Made by a program: the position numbers and the translations under genes. Of a DNA stretch of 64,000 nucleotides, positions 46,149 through 58,606 are shown in pieces (within the stretch, counting starts at the first letter, position 1; each line of letters begins with the position of its first letter). Origin of the DNA: Mycobacteriales bacterium (lineage in GTDB: Bacteria; Actinomycetota; Actinomycetes; JAFAQI01); contig DASSEX010000085.1 in assembly GCA_035695045.1 (NCBI GenBank), forward strand, positions 6,440-70,439, given 5' to 3'. Under the pieces are notes generated by a model, which saw only the letters and a program-made list of their open reading frames with translations, had not been told where the DNA came from and did not search any database.

Positions 46149-47279
46149 ATGCGGGTCCTCCATGTGACGGACACCTACCTTCCCAGACGTGGCGGCATCG
46201 AGCTGCACGTCCACGACCTCGCGCAGGCGCAGCGGCGCGCGGGCGACGAGGTAGACGTCCTGACCCTGACCCGGGCCCGCGCGGTCGAGCCGGCGGAGTC
46301 CGCCGGTTCGCTGCTGCGGCCGGCCGACCACGCCGACCTCGTCGACAAGCTGCGTTTCGTGCTGGCGCACCGCCGGCGGGGGAGGACGGCGGGCTACGAC
46401 GTCGTCCACGCCCACTGCTCGACGTTCTCGCCGCTGGTGTTCGCGACGCTCGCGGCGGCCGACGGGCTCCCGACCGCCGTGACGGCGCACTCGCTGTGGC
46501 GGCGCTACACACCTCTATATAGAGCGGGCGACTACGCGGGGCGGTGGAGCACCTGGCCGATCGCGTGGTCGGCGGTGAGCGAGGCAGCGGCCGAGGCCGT
46601 CCGCCGCGCCGCCGCGCGGCCGCTGCAGGTCGACGTGGTGCCCAACGGCATCGACCCGACGGCGTGGCCGCACGTCGAGCGCTCGCCGCAGCCGGGACGG
46701 CTGCGGGTCATCAGCGTGATGCGGCTCGCGCCGCGCAAGCGGCCGCTCGCTCTGCTGCGCATCCTGCACCGGGCCGCGCTCGCGATGCCTCCGGGGACCA
46801 AACTGGAGGCCGTGGTTGTCGGTGACGGCCCGCAGGCCGGCGCGATGCGGCGTTATCTGCGCCGACATGACCTCGAGGACCTCGTCACCCTCGCCGGCCA
46901 CCAGCCGCGCCCGGAGATCGCCCGCCGGCTCGCCGACGCCGACGTGTTCCTCGCCCCCGCGACGCTCGAGTCGTTCGGCATCGCCGCGCTGGAGGCAGCG
47001 GCGACCGGGGTGCCCGTCCTCGGCCGCCGCCGGACCGGGCTCGCCGAGTTCGTCGTCGATGGCGCAGGCGGCCTGCTCGTCGACAGTGACGCCGGCATCG
47101 CGGAGGCCCTCGTCGACGTCGCGGCCGGTCGTCGGCAGCTGGGGCCGGTGCCGCGAGCCGCTGTCGAGCAGATGAGCTGGCCGGCGGTCGTCGAGCGCAC
47201 GCGCGCGCTCTACGAGCGTGCCGGGCTGGGGGAAGTCGCTCCGGTGACCGGCTCGACGCGCAAACGGCGGGCGTCGTGA
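46149..47279 (+). CDS. Family-4 glycosyltransferase
   Basis: MRVLHVTDTYLPRRGGIE N-terminus. ESFGIAALEAAATGVPV matches the EX7E region. Confidence 0.88.
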   Translation: MRVLHVTDTYLPRRGGIELHVHDLAQAQRRAGDEVDVLTLTRARAVEPAESAGSLLRPADHADLVDKLRFVLAHRRRGRTAGYDVVHAHCSTFSPLVFATLAAADGLPTAVTAHSLWRRYTPLYRAGDYAGRWSTWPIAWSAVSEAAAEAVRRAAARPLQVDVVPNGIDPTAWPHVERSPQPGRLRVISVMRLAPRKRPLALLRILHRAALAMPPGTKLEAVVVGDGPQAGAMRRYLRRHDLEDLVTLAGHQPRPEIARRLADADVFLAPATLESFGIAALEAAATGVPVLGRRRTGLAEFVVDGAGGLLVDSDAGIAEALVDVAAGRRQLGPVPRAAVEQMSWPAVVERTRALYERAGLGEVAPVTGSTRKRRAS

Positions 47280-52027: not shown

Positions 52028-53989
52028 CTAGAGCTCGATCTGCGTGCCCATCACGACCGTGCGTTCGGCCGGCAGGGCGAAGTAGTCAGCGGGGTTCGCC
52101 GCGTTCTGCGCCAGGGTGATGAACAGCATCTTCCGCCACCGGGACATCTCCTTGCCGGACCCGCGCTGGATGGTGGCGCGGGAGAGGAAGTACGACGCAT
52201 TGCTCGTGTCGACGTCGACCTCGCCGCCTTCGGCGCTCGCGTCGCGCAGCGCCCGCGGGATGTTCGGGGTGTCCGAGAACCCATAGCTGAGCGTGAGGTG
52301 AGCGATCCCGTCGTCGTCGTAGCCGAGGTTGTCGACGGTGAGCCGCCGCCCCGCGGGCACGTGGGGGATGTTCTCGGCGACGGCGGAGACGATCACGACG
52401 TGCTCGTGCAGGATCTTGTTGTGCTCGACGTTGGCGCGCAGCGCGAGCGGCGTCGTCTCCTTGCCGGCATGAGGGAAGATCGCCGTGCCGGAGACGCGGT
52501 GCACGGGATGCTTGCGCAGCTCCTCGACGAAGTCGCGCAGCCGGCCCTCCTGCTCCCTGCGTCGCTCGGTGGCGACGATCCGGCCGCGTTGCCACGTCGA
52601 CATCGTCGTGAAGACGAGCGTCGCGATGACCAGCGGCAGCCAGCCGCCGCGGACGACCTTCGTCAGGTTGGCGGTGAAGAAGGTCAGCTCGACGGCCCCG
52701 AACGCGATCGCGACCAGCGCCAGGCGCCACGCCCGCCAGTGCCACAGCGAGCGGGCCACAACCATGAGCAGGATCGTGTCGACGAGCAAGGCGCCCGTGA
52801 CGGCCACGCCGTAGGCGGTGGCCAGCCGTTCGGACGACCGGAAGCCCAGAGCCAGGGCGAGCACGCCGAGGAACAACGCGGCGTTGACCAGTGGCAGGTA
52901 GATCTGGCCGGCCTCCTCCTCCGACGTCTGCCGGACCCGAAGCGGGGGAAGCAGCCCGAGCTGCCCGGCTTGGCGCGAGACCGAGAACGCGCCGGAGATC
53001 ACAGCCTGTGACGCGATGACCGTCGCCGCCGTCGCGAGCACGACCATCGGCACCCGCGCCCAGTGCGGGAGCAGGAGGAAGAACGGGTTGGCCCGCGCGT
53101 CAGGGTGCCGGAGGAGCAGCGCGCCCTGGCCGAGGTAGTTGATGATCAGCGCCGGGAACACGACCGCGAACCAGGCGCGACGGATCGGCGGTCGGCCGAA
53201 GTGCCCCATGTCGGCGTACAGCGCCTCTGCGCCGGTGATGGCGAGGACGATCGCGCCCATCGCGATGAAGGTCAGGCCGGGGTGCGCGAAGACGAACGCC
53301 ACGGCGTAGGTCGGTGACAAGGCGCGCAGTGTCGACGGCTGCTTCACGATCTCCTGGCCGCCGGCGACGGCGAGCGTGGCGAACCACGCGAACATCACCG
53401 GCCCGAAGAGCGCACCGACGCGGCGCGTCCCGTAGCGCTGTACGGCAAACAGCAAGGTGAGGATGACGACGGCAATCGGCAGCACGAGGTGCGAGAGCCC
53501 CGGCGTCGCGACCTTCAGGCCCTCGACCGCCGAGAGGACCGAGATGGCCGGCGTGATGACGGAGTCGCCGTAGAACAGAGACGCACCGACGATGCCGAGC
53601 ACCAGCGCAATCCGTACGCCGTGCTTGCGGTCGCGAAGCAGCCGTCCGGCCAGCGCGGTCAGCGCCATCACGCCGCCCTCACCGTCGTTGTCGGCGCGCA
53701 TGATGACGACGACGTACTTCAACGTGACGATCAGCGTCACCGACCAGAAAAGCAGCGAGATGACGCCGTAGACGTCGTCCGGCGCCGCCTGGATGCTTCC
53801 GCGGTCGAGGGCGAAGACCGTCTTCAGCGCATAGAGCGGGCTGGTGCCGATGTCGCCGAAGACGATGCCCAGCGCGGCGAGTGTGGTCGCGACCCTGCCG
53901 ACGTCCTTGGCCGTCGCCGAGCGCCGCGGCCGCGCTCGCTCGGCGGCCGCGTTGGCGCCGGGGTCGCCGACGACGTGGTAGGTGGGCAC
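52028..53989 (-). CDS. kup: KUP-family potassium uptake transporter
   Basis: GIVFGDIGTSPLYAL signature and 12 TM-like segments. GTG 53989 is preceded by GGGAGAAGGAAGAG. The track ORF (760 aa) has a junk extension. Confidence 0.92.
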   Translation of the reverse strand: MPTYHVVGDPGANAAAERARPRRSATAKDVGRVATTLAALGIVFGDIGTSPLYALKTVFALDRGSIQAAPDDVYGVISLLFWSVTLIVTLKYVVVIMRADNDGEGGVMALTALAGRLLRDRKHGVRIALVLGIVGASLFYGDSVITPAISVLSAVEGLKVATPGLSHLVLPIAVVILTLLFAVQRYGTRRVGALFGPVMFAWFATLAVAGGQEIVKQPSTLRALSPTYAVAFVFAHPGLTFIAMGAIVLAITGAEALYADMGHFGRPPIRRAWFAVVFPALIINYLGQGALLLRHPDARANPFFLLLPHWARVPMVVLATAATVIASQAVISGAFSVSRQAGQLGLLPPLRVRQTSEEEAGQIYLPLVNAALFLGVLALALGFRSSERLATAYGVAVTGALLVDTILLMVVARSLWHWRAWRLALVAIAFGAVELTFFTANLTKVVRGGWLPLVIATLVFTTMSTWQRGRIVATERRREQEGRLRDFVEELRKHPVHRVSGTAIFPHAGKETTPLALRANVEHNKILHEHVVIVSAVAENIPHVPAGRRLTVDNLGYDDDGIAHLTLSYGFSDTPNIPRALRDASAEGGEVDVDTSNASYFLSRATIQRGSGKEMSRWRKMLFITLAQNAANPADYFALPAERTVVMGTQIEL

Positions 53990-54012
53990 GCAGCTCTTCC
54001 TTCTCCCGCGGC

Positions 54013-55788
54013 CTACTGGCCGGCAGCGTCGGCGGCAAGGCGGCCGGCGGCTTCGAGCATCACAGCGTGGACGAACGCCTGCGGCAGGTTGCCGCGCAGC
54101 TGTCGCTGCCGCACGTCGTACTCCTCGCTGAACAGCCCCGGCGGCCCGCAGGCCGCGCGGTTGCGCTCGAAGAACCGCGCAGCCGAGATGTGGTCGCCGG
54201 CAGCATGGTCGGCCATGGCCATCAGGAACCCGCACAGCACGAACGCCCCCTCGGCGTCCTCGAGCGGTCCTGGTCCCTGCCGGAAGCGGTAGACGAAGTG
54301 GTCGCGGCACAGGTCGCGACGGATCGCTTCACGGGTTGCAGCCGTCCGCGGGTCGTCCGGAGCGACAGCCCCGCGGATGCCGGCGAGCAGCAACGCCGCG
54401 TCCACGTTCTCGTCCTCGGGTGAGCGCTGCCATCGTCCGGACGGGTGCAGGCTGTCCGACGCCACCTGCGCGAGGATCGTGTCGGCGAGCGAGGTCCACT
54501 CTGCGGCCTGCTTGCCGGGAGCATGTCGGCTGACGTCGCGGAGCCCGGCGACGCACATCAGTCGGGAGTGCGTCCAGCGCTGCGCGTCGATCTCCCAGAT
54601 GCCGTTGTCCGGCTCCTTCCACCGGCGCGCGATGGCGTCGGCGGCAGCCTCGACCGCATGCCAGTTCGTGGTCTCGATGCGGTCGCAGTCGGCAGCCGCG
54701 GCGAACAGCTGCAGGGCTTCACCGAAGGAGTCGAGCTGGAACTGCACGTTGGCACGGTTGCCCGCGATGTCGCTGCCGCCGGGATAGCCGTCCAGCCCCC
54801 GGAGCTTCCGCTCGTCGGGCACCTCGTCACCCAGGATCGTGTAGGCCGGCTTGAGCTCCGGTCCGTGCGCCAGCAGCTGCTCGCTGACGAACCGCACGGC
54901 GTCGTCGACGATGATGTCCGCGCCTGCTGCGGCAGCCGCCTGGCCGGCGTAACACTGGTCGCGGATCCAGACGTAGCGGTAGTCGTAGTTGCGGCCCTGC
55001 TCGGCGCGTTCAGGCAACGCCATGGTGGCGGCGGCGACCATGCCGCCGCTCGCAGCCGTCAGGCCGCGCAGGACGGTGAACGCGGTCATGGCGTCGACCG
55101 GCGCGATCGTGCCACCGAGATCCGGCTTCGCCGAGGACCACGCGTTCGCCGTCACCTCCCACTGCTCTCGTGCCTCGGGTGGTTCGTCGTCGAACGGACG
55201 GTCGGAGATCTCGAGGACGAGGTCCCACTGCTCACCGGGCCGGACGACCCGTTGCGTGACGTAACCCAGCGCGGTCCGTCGTACGTCGTCCAGACCCGAC
55301 CATCGCAGGTTCAGACGCCCCGTGCGGGCGGTCCAGACTCCTCCGCGTCGGCGAACGTCGTCGAGAGCCGCGGCGCCGAACCGGTCGTGGGCCGCGAGGA
55401 CCGCGCGCATCGGCGTCGCACTGTCCTGTGCGCAGACCGAACGCAGGATCACCGCGCGGTGCGGGTCGCCGGGGAAGGCGAGCGCGTCGCGGGACTCGAC
55501 GATTCCCTCGCTCGTCGCCCAGCGGCTGCGCCAGATCAGCGACCCCGGCTCGTAGTAGCCGCCCCAGACGTGCCGGTCGACGTCGGGCGTGACGGCGTAG
55601 AGGCCCTTGCCGCCGATGAGAGTCGAGAAGACGGCGTCGTCGTGCCAGCGGGGCGCACACATCCACGCGATGTCACCGCGGGAGCCGATCAGGGCGCCGC
55701 GCTCACCGTCGGCGATCAGCGAGTACTCACGCAGGACCTGCGGCGGGTACTGCGCCGAGACGTCCACCACGCGGTGCATCCTGCCCAA
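54013..55788 (-). CDS. Glycoside hydrolase family 15 (glucoamylase/trehalase-like)
   Basis: NYDYRYVWIRDQCY, FQLDSFGE, LFSEEYD motifs. Start is TTG 55788 or ATG 55779. Confidence 0.88.
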   Translation of the reverse strand: MGRMHRVVDVSAQYPPQVLREYSLIADGERGALIGSRGDIAWMCAPRWHDDAVFSTLIGGKGLYAVTPDVDRHVWGGYYEPGSLIWRSRWATSEGIVESRDALAFPGDPHRAVILRSVCAQDSATPMRAVLAAHDRFGAAALDDVRRRGGVWTARTGRLNLRWSGLDDVRRTALGYVTQRVVRPGEQWDLVLEISDRPFDDEPPEAREQWEVTANAWSSAKPDLGGTIAPVDAMTAFTVLRGLTAASGGMVAAATMALPERAEQGRNYDYRYVWIRDQCYAGQAAAAAGADIIVDDAVRFVSEQLLAHGPELKPAYTILGDEVPDERKLRGLDGYPGGSDIAGNRANVQFQLDSFGEALQLFAAAADCDRIETTNWHAVEAAADAIARRWKEPDNGIWEIDAQRWTHSRLMCVAGLRDVSRHAPGKQAAEWTSLADTILAQVASDSLHPSGRWQRSPEDENVDAALLLAGIRGAVAPDDPRTAATREAIRRDLCRDHFVYRFRQGPGPLEDAEGAFVLCGFLMAMADHAAGDHISAARFFERNRAACGPPGLFSEEYDVRQRQLRGNLPQAFVHAVMLEAAGRLAADAAGQ

Positions 55789-55791
55789 CCT

Positions 55792-55855
55792 GGTCGAGTG
55801 TGACGCAATCCACCTCGACCGAGCGCGCGCAGGGTGGATTTCGTCACACTCGACC
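55792..55855. repeat. Palindromic repeat element copy 1 (23-nt arms, 22/23 paired, 18-nt loop)
   Basis: GGTCGAGTGTGACGCAATCCACC ...18 nt... GGTGGATTTCGTCACACTCGACC, between the divergent GH15 and monooxygenase starts. Confidence 0.85.
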
Positions 55856-55894
55856 GGGGGTGCGGCCCGAACGCGATTCGGTCATACTTCCCGG

Positions 55895-57406
55895 ATGGCA
55901 GACACAGCGATGGAGCACGTCGACGTCCTCGTGATCGGCGCCGGGCTGTCCGGCGTCGGCGCCGGCTGTCACCTGACGATGAGCTGCCCGAACAAGTCGT
56001 TCGTGATCCTCGAGTCGCGCGACACCATCGGTGGCACCTGGGACCTGTTCCGCTACCCCGGCATCCGCTCCGACTCCGACATGTACACCCTCGGCTACCC
56101 CTTCCGGCCGTGGAAGGAGGCGAAGGCGATCGCGGACGGGCCGTCGATCCTTCGTTACGTGCGCGAGACCGCGCAGGAGTTCGGCGTGGACAAGAAGGTG
56201 CGCTTCCGGCACAAGGTCGTCAGCGCGTCGTGGTCGACCGAGGACGTCCGCTGGACCGTCGACATCGAGCGCACAGACACCGGCGAGCGCCTGCAGATGA
56301 CGGCGGACTTCCTGCTGACCTGCACCGGCTACTACCGCTACGACGAGGGCTACACGCCGGACTTCCCGGGGACGGACCGCTTCCGCGGGACGATCGTGCA
56401 CCCGCAGCACTGGCCGGAGGATCTCGACTACACCGGCAAGCGGGTCGTTGTCATCGGCAGCGGCGCGACAGCGGTGACGTTGGTGCCGTCGATGGCGCCG
56501 ACCGCCGCTCACGTGACGATGCTGCAGCGGTCGCCGTCGTACGTCTTGTCACTGCCGGAACAGGACCCGCTCGCGAAGCTGTTGCGCAAGTTCCTGTCAC
56601 CGAGCGCGGCGTTCCCGGTCATCCGCTGGAAGAACGTGCTCACGGCGACGCTGTTCTACCAGCTCAGCAAGCGCCGGCCGAAGCTCGTCAAGAGGCTGCT
56701 GCGCAAGGGGCTCGAGGCGGCACTGCCGTCGGGCTACGCGATCGACACGCACTTCAAGCCGAAGTACGACCCGTGGGACCAGCGTCTGTGCTTCGTTCCG
56801 GACGGCGACCTGTTCAAGGTGCTGAGCGACGGGTCTGCCTCGGTCGAGACCGACACCATCGACACGTTCACCGAGTCCGGAATCCGGCTGGCGTCGGGCA
56901 AGGAGCTCGAGGCGGACATCATCGTCACGGCGACCGGGCTCAACATGCTCGCGGTCGGCGGCATGAAGTTCGTCGTCGACGGGCGGCCGATGAAGCTGTC
57001 GGAGACGGTCGGCTACAAGGGGATGATGTTCAGCGGCATCCCCAACCTGGCGACCGCGGTCGGCTACACCAACGCGTCGTGGACGCTGAAGTGCGACCTG
57101 ACCTGCGAGTACGTCTGCCGGCTGCTCAACTACATGGACGAGGAGGGCTACCGGCAGGTCGTGCCGAGCCGGCCGGACCCGTCGGAGCCGACGCTCCCGT
57201 TCATCGACCTCAAGTCCGGCTACGTGCAGCGGTCGATCGACGACTTCCCGCGGCAGGGGACGAAGGCGCCGTGGCGGCTCTACCAGAACTACATCCGCGA
57301 CGTCATGCTGCTGCGGCACGGGAAGCTCGCCGACGAGGCCCTGCAGTTCACCCGCGGCGGTCGTCGTGCCTCGGCTCGTGACGAGGACCGCGCCCCCGCC
57401 GCCTGA
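55895..57406 (+). CDS. Flavin-dependent (EthA/Baeyer-Villiger-type) monooxygenase
   Basis: FAD GxGxxG (VLVIGAGLSGVGAG), FRGTIVHPQHW fingerprint, second GxGxxA (VVVIGSGATAV). Alternative ATG at 55910. Confidence 0.88.
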   Translation: MADTAMEHVDVLVIGAGLSGVGAGCHLTMSCPNKSFVILESRDTIGGTWDLFRYPGIRSDSDMYTLGYPFRPWKEAKAIADGPSILRYVRETAQEFGVDKKVRFRHKVVSASWSTEDVRWTVDIERTDTGERLQMTADFLLTCTGYYRYDEGYTPDFPGTDRFRGTIVHPQHWPEDLDYTGKRVVVIGSGATAVTLVPSMAPTAAHVTMLQRSPSYVLSLPEQDPLAKLLRKFLSPSAAFPVIRWKNVLTATLFYQLSKRRPKLVKRLLRKGLEAALPSGYAIDTHFKPKYDPWDQRLCFVPDGDLFKVLSDGSASVETDTIDTFTESGIRLASGKELEADIIVTATGLNMLAVGGMKFVVDGRPMKLSETVGYKGMMFSGIPNLATAVGYTNASWTLKCDLTCEYVCRLLNYMDEEGYRQVVPSRPDPSEPTLPFIDLKSGYVQRSIDDFPRQGTKAPWRLYQNYIRDVMLLRHGKLADEALQFTRGGRRASARDEDRAPAA

Positions 57407-57413
57407 CGGCGAT

Positions 57414-57475
57414 GTTGAGTGCGACGTAATCCCCCTTGCAGCACCTGCAGTTAGGGGGATTACGTCGCACTCAAC
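57414..57475. repeat. Palindromic repeat element copy 2 (23-nt perfect arms, 16-nt loop)
   Basis: GTTGAGTGCGACGTAATCCCCCT TGCAGCACCTGCAGTT AGGGGGATTACGTCGCACTCAAC, between the convergent monooxygenase and glycosidase-like gene ends. The arm is 18/22 identical to copy 1. It could double as a bidirectional terminator hairpin, but there is no U-tract. Confidence 0.85.
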
Positions 57476-57487
57476 AAAGTGGTGGGG

Positions 57488-58384
57488 TCAGGTCCTGCCG
57501 GCGGTGAACATCCCGACGACGTCCGGGATCGCGTTGTTGCAGAGCACGTCGACATCGATGAGCTTGCCCTGGGCGCTGGCGACGTACTGCGCCATCTCGG
57601 CCGGTCGCCCGCCGAGGCCTGCCTTGCACAACGGCTGCACATCGCGGTAGTCGATGACCGACGTCGCGAGCCAGACCGGCATCGTCAACCTCGCGCCGCC
57701 GGTGATCTGCTGCCACATCGGCACCGACGAGTAGACGCCGACAGTCAGTCCACGCGCCTGCAAGGCGTGGGCGGCTCCGTTGATGACGGCAACGTTGGTC
57801 GCCGCGTCGTTCGACCAGTGGTTGAGCACCTCGACGTCGAGCCAGATCGTCTGCACCGCCAGGCCGGCGTGACGGGCGCGAGCCAGGCCGTCGATGGCTG
57901 CCCGGGCACCGTAGCTCGTCGCGTCCTCACCGCGCGGAGCGTCGAGGTTGAGGTAGGCGGCGTAACCGCTGCGCTGTTTCGCGTAGGCGACCTGCTCGGC
58001 GAGGCACGGGTTGTCGGTGAAAGGCCGACCGCCGTTGACCCCGACGGTCGCGAAGCCTGCGGGGAGCGACGGGATGCCGTCGCACTGCGGCCACGACACG
58101 TCGACGCCCCAGAACGTCGCGAGCCTCGTCGCTTGCGTGCCGGAAGAAGTGTGCGCGTCGCGCGGTGCGACCTGCGGGGCCGCGGTCGGCGGCGCCGCAG
58201 GCTCGTTGAACGGCGCCTGGACGGTCGATGCGCCCGGCTGCGTCAGCTGGGTCCCGGGAGGTGCCGCCTCCGAGCCCGGAGCGTTCGCGACCAGGACGCC
58301 GGCACCGACCGCGAGCGCAGCGACGATCCCCGCGCCGAGCAGGCGGGTCGTCGTACGGCGTCCAGGCGGGGCGGCGGACGACAT
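57488..58384 (-). CDS. Secreted glycoside-hydrolase-like protein (GH25/DUF1906-type TIM barrel), tentative
   Basis: N-terminal RR-containing signal (GRRTTTRLLGAGIVAALAV), a Pro/Ala linker, then GVDVSWPQC...GGRPFTDNPCLAEQV. The family call is uncertain. Confidence 0.6.
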   Translation of the reverse strand: MSSAAPPGRRTTTRLLGAGIVAALAVGAGVLVANAPGSEAAPPGTQLTQPGASTVQAPFNEPAAPPTAAPQVAPRDAHTSSGTQATRLATFWGVDVSWPQCDGIPSLPAGFATVGVNGGRPFTDNPCLAEQVAYAKQRSGYAAYLNLDAPRGEDATSYGARAAIDGLARARHAGLAVQTIWLDVEVLNHWSNDAATNVAVINGAAHALQARGLTVGVYSSVPMWQQITGGARLTMPVWLATSVIDYRDVQPLCKAGLGGRPAEMAQYVASAQGKLIDVDVLCNNAIPDVVGMFTAGRT

Positions 58385-58606
58385 GAGCGAGGAGGCTCCC
58401 GGGGAAGCGGGCAAATGGGGCGGTAGGCCCATGGTAAACGGGAACAAAACTCCTCGCTGCTACCGTTGGACGTGCAGACGGCGCCATGCCGTCCCTCCCG
58501 CGGGCGAGTTGCCCGCGCGGTCGCAGTTTGTGAGTGCTCCCACCGCCTCGTCGGTCACCGGGCCTGCTTGCGAAAGTCCGCGGCCCTCGTGACACCTGGA
58601 GCACCA

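Follow-up and report, generated by a model that had tools for sequence, protein, structure and literature searches.

A dispersed palindromic repeat at gene ends in soil actinobacteria and its pairing with an AbiEi-DUF559 gene

In a 64,000-nt stretch of a Mycobacteriales genome (contig DASSEX010000085.1 of assembly GCA_035695045.1; the whole of this stretch is called the window), a gene for a flavin-containing monooxygenase is bracketed by two long palindromes, copy 1 and copy 2. These are solo copies of an undescribed, dispersed family of 60-62-bp palindromic elements, here named P, carried by uncultured soil actinobacteria of the Mycobacteriales/Frankiales type. P is paired non-randomly with a gene for an AbiEi-DUF559 protein, including an orthologous site that holds a full unit of two P copies and this gene in one genome and a solo P in another. 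The reading favoured here, which is probable but leaves room for doubt, is that P is a selfish repeat at stop codons, similar to the repetitive extragenic palindromes (REPs, REPINs) or to the Tuberculosis Rho-independent terminator motif (TRIT), with an AbiEi-DUF559 unit and with copies 1 and 2 as solo members. Compared loci are cited by their L numbers.

The two palindromes and the P family

The arms of copy 1 (55792-55814 and 55833-55855) are complementary in 22 of 23 positions around an 18-nt loop, with pairing that reaches 26 nt at 92%. The 23-nt arms of copy 2 are perfectly complementary, and pairing there reaches 31 nt at 90% (57413-57443 and 57446-57476). The two copies have homologous arms and unrelated loops, and are equal both in core length (62 nt) and in the spacing between their AATCC and GGATT blocks (24 nt). 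Folded as RNA, copy 1 reaches -51 kcal/mol (z = -7.1) and copy 2 -55 kcal/mol (z = -10.0) against shuffled sequences. A scan of the window with the 19-nt family arm at up to three mismatches gave four matches where 0.05 were expected, all four being arms of copies 1 and 2. Similarly, a covariance model scan of the 64-kb window revealed no further copy. A GC-rich hairpin at 46284-46343 (18.7 bits) lacks the arm motif and was rejected as a member; covariance model R1 scores copy 1 at 67 bits and copy 2 at 75 bits. The recomputed arms, the folds and the arm scan thus bear out the original prediction of two palindromes at these places, with homologous arms that match in 18 of 22 positions. Its distances also agree with those remeasured: copy 1 lies 4 nt from the TTG start of the GH15 gene at 55788 (13 nt from an in-frame ATG at 55779), the monooxygenase ATG at 55895 is 40 nt beyond its other end, and copy 2 lies 7 nt and 12 nt from the convergent stops.

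The arms of the two copies differ in 4 of 22 positions (3, 9, 14 and 20). Every difference had been described as mirrored in the partner arm of the same copy, which holds exactly for positions 3, 9 and 20 but not for position 14, where neither arm of copy 1 agrees with copy 2 or pairs with its partner, making up the single stem mismatch of copy 1. Copy 1 (GACGCAATCCACC) and copy 2 (GACGTAATCCCCC..AGTTAGGGGG) belong to different subfamilies and have 47 of 62 positions in common; the nearest relatives of copy 2, of its own subfamily, include both elements that flank the DUF559 gene of L085. Copy 2 is crossed by contigs assembled independently in four soil sequencing runs and is therefore no assembly artefact. 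The soil runs that hold the window also contain more copies with other flanks and loops, as indicated by excess depth, loop indels and loose ends at 57413 and 57476.

Members of the family were sought with a core-pattern scan in which each of 185,579 species was represented by one genome (the window's own genome not being among them) and with a single-arm scan of metagenomes. The former yielded 25 genuine palindromes of the family. One fragmentary metagenome-assembled genome (MAG), Mycobacteriales SMAG_U5813, accounts for at least 19, each on a contig of its own; a Frankiaceae MAG has three, and there is one apiece in a Frankiales MAG, in SMAG_U1144 and in an assembly of Cellulomonas. The remaining core-pattern matches were due to chance or to an unrelated Streptomyces hairpin. 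The latter scan gave about 75 paired elements among the matches listed, from soil and rhizosphere samples; unpaired arm matches were chance matches in low-GC contigs, truncations at contig ends or decayed copies. In all, at least 120 P elements were collected from MAGs and soil metagenomes. The expectation of a dispersed, REP-like intergenic repeat is thus confirmed by some 120 further copies elsewhere, and a mere local duplication, the other outcome that had been considered when a count beyond this locus was proposed, is not what was found. Rfam held no matching family and returned only sub-threshold matches to generic microRNA-precursor hairpins, the arm sequence was not found in a literature text search, and viral contigs gave no P match.

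Across genomes, each arm has an almost invariant outer part of 15-19 nt, GTTGAGTGCGACGAA(ATCC), and 29 of the 62 alignment columns do not vary at all. The next 3-9 pairs and the centre vary from copy to copy with self-complementarity kept. In the 25-member alignment, 90% of the cells are paired, against 31-43% when partner columns are slid, and the inner-stem pairs 20/43 and 21/42 show covariation among GC, AU and CG that leaves 0-2 cells unpaired. This covariation, which is also seen within the orthologues of copy 1, upholds the earlier claim that arm complementarity is maintained by two-sided changes. P is bounded by GTTGAG..CTCAAC and is paired to its ends (G1-C62), with GACG/CGTC internal to the stem. 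Each arm contains TGA at positions 3-5, and T14 variants also contain TAA at 14-16, so that an open reading frame (ORF) entering from either side can end inside the element. The junctions show no target-site duplication, as 78 of 101 share no repeat and the others share 1-4 nt as by chance. The 5' flanks are rich in C and those on the 3' side in G (about 20% T), with a weak preference for CAT directly before GTTGAG. No U-tract was found in the 3' flanks, and a terminator scan called neither copy 1 nor copy 2; of the two marks of a canonical intrinsic terminator, P has the hairpin and lacks the U-tract. The mean fold on both strands is about -41 kcal/mol.

Two other palindromes came to light in the course of these searches. 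A different hairpin of Streptomyces, GGAGACGTAATCCGGTCGCAAAGGAAACAAAATCTGACCGGATTACGTCTCAC, with the conserved flank ..TCGTACAACC, occurs once in each of 13 loci from about 13 species (L001, L002, L013, L016, L017, L020, L027, L029, L038, L047, L048, L051 and L052); it surfaced solely through sharing GACGTAATCC with P and may be a structured RNA or an operator. In Dyella (Gammaproteobacteria), positions 493-556 of L043 form a 64-nt palindrome, GTCGACGGGGACGAAATCCCAGC..GCTGGGATTTCGTCCCAGCCTAC, which shares GACGAAATCC without the outer arm and is probably unrelated to P.

Placement at gene ends and the AbiEi-DUF559 unit

Coding strand and frame beside P were inferred from the phase of GC content at third codon positions, gene calls in the compared loci being heuristic. 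Of the 65 copies that could be classified, 36 are flanked by convergent genes, 21 by co-directional genes and 8 by the starts of divergent genes; 57 (88%) are thus at gene 3' ends. Stop codons that point inward fall within 30 nt of P in 101 of 112 cases, with modes at +7 and -5, and the 20 stop codons at -5 are P's own TGA inside GTTGAG. With convergent stops at 7 and 12 nt, copy 2 is therefore a canonical member, and copy 1 belongs to the 12% minority between divergent starts. Three of the eight members of that class are orthologous (window, L060 and L112), and four or five independent copies represent it elsewhere (L083, L108=L138, L152 and L161); in L161 the divergent starts are only about 4 and 17 nt from P. 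The original argument that a terminator-type function cannot fit both positions is weakened by this distribution. Overall, P occurs at one copy per 8-kb locus, among housekeeping genes.

Three short metagenome contigs carry two P elements each, about 1 kb apart or less. In L085 and L072, the enclosed gene encodes homologous 291-aa proteins, 69% identical to each other, with a DUF559 endonuclease domain. In the reverse test, homologues of the 291-aa protein were examined (L181, from a MAG of the same group as L056; L182-184; L185; L186-187), and P was found on both sides of every AbiEi-DUF559 gene examined (L085, L072=L182-184, L181, L185 and L186-187). The P copies of a unit are 1002-1016 nt apart, start to start, and score 36-67 bits with the covariance model; the five neighbourhoods are mutually different. 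The upstream copy, P1, hugs the stop of the upstream neighbour and lies about 60 nt upstream of the DUF559 start, and the downstream copy, P2, overlaps or abuts the DUF559 stop and the end of the downstream neighbour. Both have the same polarity and share 49-62 of 62 positions within a unit (they are identical in L085), against 38-51 between units; L185 and L186 share only the outer GTTGAGTG(C/T)GACGAA with other units. The DUF559 loci contain no further P besides the flanking two, and comparison of DUF559 ends with non-unit gene ends gives a Fisher p of about 1e-9 from counts tallied by hand. At a site between phosphodiesterase and aldo-keto-reductase genes (PDE-AKR), L182 has the full unit and the orthologous L053 has one P. 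In every unit, P1 is followed by the leader motif TGTGGA(C/T). When it was sought beside solo P as a trace of decayed units, it was found in 1 of 200 flanks, and this sole match is due to chance, as it lies in the end of a glycosyltransferase gene (L044).

The unit proteins are 64-85% identical, with invariant ESPME, DLAYP and EYDG..H motifs. Their N-terminal part matches AbiEi (winged helix) and their C-terminal part Pfam DUF559, with a weak match of the latter part to PDB 3hrl, an 'endonuclease-like protein'. The nuclease domain is predicted from sequence to be a Vsr-like PD-(D/E)XK fold. The search for a cognate protein proposed in the original prediction has thus led to a candidate, the AbiEi-DUF559 nuclease, but not to a RAYT. 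Soil-run contigs matched nothing of the L085 unit except P copies and the conserved motif of the nuclease, so this unit is not in those soil samples at 90% identity or more.

Some observations on these loci stand by themselves. Most of the best 120 AbiEi-DUF559 homologues are on contigs of only 1-2 kb, as expected if flanking repeats break short-read assemblies. The downstream gene at L085 1111-1250 ends ..KYAKLRQIKGKWDPENVFHHNQNIP.., a typical C-terminus of BBE/FAD-linked oxidases, and hence the neighbourhood of L085 differs from that of L181. The third bracketed gene, in L096, is not DUF559: two P of different subfamilies (129-190 and 813-874), 684 nt apart, enclose a 191-aa ORF without a Pfam match.

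Candidate explanations and known systems

Under the favoured reading, P would lodge at or on stop codons without target duplication, mostly between convergent genes, and would often supply the stop itself. It would persist for long, with its arm pairing restored after mutation. A unit of about 1.07 kb with a single gene, of the AbiEi-type winged-helix and DUF559 kind, is bounded by two like-oriented copies, and the protein would recognise the conserved arm; solo copies would arise by recombination between P elements or as non-autonomous copies. Transcribed from either side, P would fold into a hairpin of about -40 to -55 kcal/mol and would define or protect RNA 3' ends in both directions. Since the hairpin has no U-tract, such a two-way role at RNA 3' ends is probably closer to its function than classical intrinsic termination. 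Copy 1 is an old member just upstream of the probable monooxygenase promoter, beside a stretch of recurrent deletions and rearrangements.

Several points weigh against this reading. The function and mobility of P, including any transposition, cleavage or binding, are inferred. No empty and filled pair of sites with exact boundaries was obtained for a solo P, and no AbiEi-DUF559 gene was found in the 64-kb window, whose genome may lack the unit altogether. P itself served to find two of the six DUF559 loci, and four homologue look-ups gave the rest, so their ascertainment is not fully independent. Template-switch repair in quasi-palindromes could keep arms complementary without selection, and the compensation in place at copy 1 (described below) is expected both from selection for pairing and from template-switch repair between arms. 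On the transcribed strand of co-directional copies, G-U (34) and C-A (30) mismatches show no bias, so nothing there points specifically to a function at the RNA level; all the sequencing runs that hold the locus are of DNA.

TRIT of Mycobacterium was described by Gardner et al. (2011; PMC3152330), with 147 copies in M. tuberculosis, and was reported as confined to the genus. It has been reinterpreted as a probable substrate of RNase III (PMC13714241), and its mechanism is disputed (PMC3152330; PMC13714241; bioRxiv 10.1101/2022.06.01.494293). In a comparison of descriptions alone, TRIT appears to be the closest analogue of P in behaviour. Both are palindromic hairpins of conserved sequence, mostly bidirectional, placed narrowly at or over a stop codon without a canonical U-tract, and both belong to the same broad order (Mycobacteriales in GTDB). 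However, P has a candidate partner gene between two copies and none has been described for TRIT (PMC3152330; PMC13714241). In addition, the P core pattern had no match in Mycobacterium among the 185,579 species genomes, which argues against P being TRIT.

REPs are imperfect palindromes of 20-40 bp, one end of which carries an unpaired tag, GTAG or CGTC (PMC3733652), and in Proteobacteria a RAYT gene flanked by REPs is called a 'REPtron' (PMC3733652; PMC3116915). The 'REPtron' appears, again by analogy, to be the closest counterpart of P in organisation. The REP/REPIN-RAYT system and P have in common extragenic palindromes that are numerous in a genome and enriched behind genes and where genes converge, the absence of target duplication, subfamilies within a genome and a single-copy-type gene between two repeats. 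P differs in being longer (60-62 bp), in lacking the tagged short palindrome, and in flanking its gene with complete palindromes of the same polarity. The enclosed gene differs as well: RAYT is an HUH Y1 transposase (IS200/IS605-like), whereas the P-flanked gene encodes an AbiEi winged helix-turn-helix joined to a DUF559 PD-(D/E)XK nuclease.

Correia elements of Neisseria and other miniature inverted-repeat transposable elements (MITEs) resemble P in their small size and inverted ends. They are transcribed with their neighbours, their hairpins are processed as RNA, and they are gained or lost among close relatives. MITEs are flanked by a target-site duplication (TA in Correia), and their ends are related to insertion sequences with DDE transposases. 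P is not a MITE in the strict sense, as it has no target duplication, and no insertion-sequence-like pair of arms enclosing a transposase was seen in 180 loci, DUF559 being the sole gene enclosed there between complete palindromes. The REP/MITE-like nature first ascribed to these elements is therefore right as to their REP-like dispersal; a GTAG or CGTC tag and the target-site duplication of a strict MITE are both absent. The attC sites of integrons are imperfect palindromes of 57-141 bp directly behind cassette ORFs, and the outer heptamers of P do fit GTTRRRY and RYYYAAC. However, the box order is reversed in P, with GTT outermost, and the arms are perfectly paired without extrahelical bases. 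Box order, perfect pairing and dispersal as single copies exclude an integron attC site or cassette, and no integrase gene was seen.

A bolder form of the favoured reading, which is put forward only tentatively and is somewhat doubtful, is that P and the AbiEi-DUF559 gene together are a 'REPtron' of a new sort, some 1.07 kb of selfish DNA whose nuclease recognises and cuts the GTTGAGTGCGACGAA arms. P would be cut as duplex, cruciform or hairpin, and the gene would spread into P sites by repair-mediated homing or would mobilise P itself. Solo P would be left by recombination between two P copies, in the manner of solo long terminal repeats.

An unlikely alternative, though the strongest of those outside the favoured reading, is that P is immobile and purely host-selected, a TRIT-like hairpin at RNA 3' ends whose reader is a sequence-specific double-stranded RNA factor or RNase III, with the DUF559 gene merely using the genome's standard gene-end signal on both sides. 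The 88% of classifiable copies at 3' ends, the tight clustering of stop distances and the very stable hairpins on both strands accord with it, as does the conserved primary sequence of the outer stem, which is also known for TRIT (PMC3152330), whose ends look processed by RNase III (PMC13714241). However, P occurs in four DUF559 loci only at that gene and at none of their other gene ends outside the units (46 in our own tally), and the P pair of a unit is more alike than other copies and has the same polarity. Five independent copies are found where two genes start divergently, a place in which a signal for 3' ends would be pointless; no U-tract follows P, its 3' flanks being rich in G with about 20% T; and relatives lack the element at corresponding gene ends.

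Less probable still, and given little credence here, is a chromosomal dyad for a dimeric protein, such as AbiEi-DUF559 acting as a regulator, nucleoid or defence factor, with solo P as operators or decoys. AbiEi-type proteins bind inverted repeats in the AbiE system, P offers two conserved, inverted half-sites of 15-19 bp with a fixed 24-nt spacing between the AATCC and GGATT blocks, and P1, about 60 nt ahead of the DUF559 start, is in the position of an autoregulatory operator. However, the interior of P stays self-complementary through many sequences, which a simple dyad does not need; moreover, most copies lie behind stop codons, far from promoters, and many reach into the end of a reading frame and provide its stop codon.

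In high-GC actinobacteria, palindromes of conserved sequence are a common feature of gene ends, TRIT being the described example. To our knowledge, TRIT-like palindromes have neither a known mechanism of spreading nor a known partner protein. For CGTC-type REPs, no dedicated enzyme is known (PMC3733652). P provides a concrete candidate partner, a small DNA-binding nuclease gene between two copies, and the 'REPtron' form of the reading, if true, would supply the first candidate reader or spreader for the stop-codon-hugging palindromic repeats of Actinobacteria. For annotation, P explains odd gene ends, since the element supplies the stop codon, and it marks sites of contig breaks, deletions and synteny change.

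The monooxygenase locus and its relatives

The features of the locus are collected in Table 1. That the pair is local to the monooxygenase, as duplicated regulatory or insulating hairpins or as the ends of a mobile or invertible cassette, is scarcely credible: the copies do bracket exactly one gene in a 64-kb window without another copy, but P is dispersed through many genomes, the copies differ in subfamily (47 of 62 positions shared), no integrase, array or attC box order was found, and such a reading is contradicted by orthologous loci without the copies, the gene being in place in L056 with no element and in L054, L058 and L059 with remnants only.

Table 1. Features at and around the two P copies in the window
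Feature	Position	Strand	Remarks
Copy 1, solo palindromic element	55792..55855	none	core 55793-55854; between divergent starts
Copy 2, solo palindromic element	57413..57476	none	core 57414-57475; between convergent stops
Flavin-containing (FMO/BVMO-like) monooxygenase gene	55895..57406	+	Pfam FMO-like, Pyr_redox_3, NAD_binding_8
Conserved monooxygenase leader	55856..55894	+	dyad CCGAACGCGATTCGG 55867-55881; -10-like CATACT 55883-55888
GH15 glycoside hydrolase gene	54013..55779	-	Pfam Glyco_hydro_15, TREH_N; start abuts copy 1
Convergent downstream gene	57488..58447	-	weak Rv2525c-like glycoside-hydrolase-like match; stop 12 nt from copy 2

Orthologues of the monooxygenase, 78-91% identical, were compared together with their flanks. 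Copy 1 has intact orthologues in L060 and L112, directly upstream of the conserved monooxygenase leader. Only a remnant of its right arm, CGTCACA(C/G)TC(G/A)AC, is left in L054, L058 and L059, and L056 has no copy 1, the stop of a SpoIIE-GAF gene abutting the monooxygenase leader there. Copy 2 is represented by remnants in L054 (CACTCAAC) and L057 (ATGTTGAG) and is gone from L056, L058 and L059, where the stops overlap or are 7 nt apart. In one soil-run variant, 18 nt stand in place of 57405-57495, copy 2 included. Because orthologues or remnants persist in some relatives and losses have occurred in others, both copies are old at this locus and decay by asymmetric deletion, a process by which long palindromes are known to decay.

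The orthologues of copy 1 also allow changes in the arms to be followed. At arm position 9, L060 and L112 have C in the distal arm and T in the proximal arm, and the window has T in both; the ancestral C/T mismatch was thus resolved in the window lineage. At position 3, both arms changed in the window lineage, from T-A to C-G. As read from these alignments, positions 3 and 9 represent compensation inside one orthologous copy.

The upstream neighbour of the monooxygenase varies among relatives. In L057-L060 and L112, PadR-ABC-FtsX (an operon in L057) adjoins the monooxygenase and GH15 follows further out. The window has GH15-Kup there, L054 retains a C-terminal Kup remnant of 63 aa, and L056 has SpoIIE-GAF. 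Several deletions must therefore end at or within a few tens of nucleotides of copy 1, and the breaks in synteny adjoin it (remodelled block compared: window 52028-55788, L054 9705-9896, L056, L057 1-4573). In the window, the GH15 gene has lost its GGAGGA ribosome-binding region, and its new N-terminus abuts the palindrome.

The Rv2525c-like gene is syntenic in all relatives, and in L056 the monooxygenase, with SpoIIE-GAF on one side and the Rv2525c-like gene on the other, is unchanged in place and orientation without any element. An inversion of the monooxygenase between the copies, by which both would have been ordinary elements of 3' ends, was ruled out by its same orientation in L056 and L054, which lack intact copies. 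As relatives keep the gene without either copy, a gene-specific role of the pair is not supported, and the bracketing of the monooxygenase is incidental. The proposal that the hairpins insulate or stabilise the monooxygenase transcript has accordingly been given up: the gene is kept without the copies, their subfamilies differ, and nothing ties the pair to it.

A sigma-70 consensus scan found no promoter in the monooxygenase leader. The leader, with the dyad CCGAACGSGATTCGG followed by CATACT, lies at 55856-55894 in the window and is kept at all seven orthologous loci (L054, L056-L060 and L112), with or without copy 1, and CATACT is placed 6 nt ahead of the monooxygenase ATG. It is probably an operator with a leaderless promoter, separate from the repeat.

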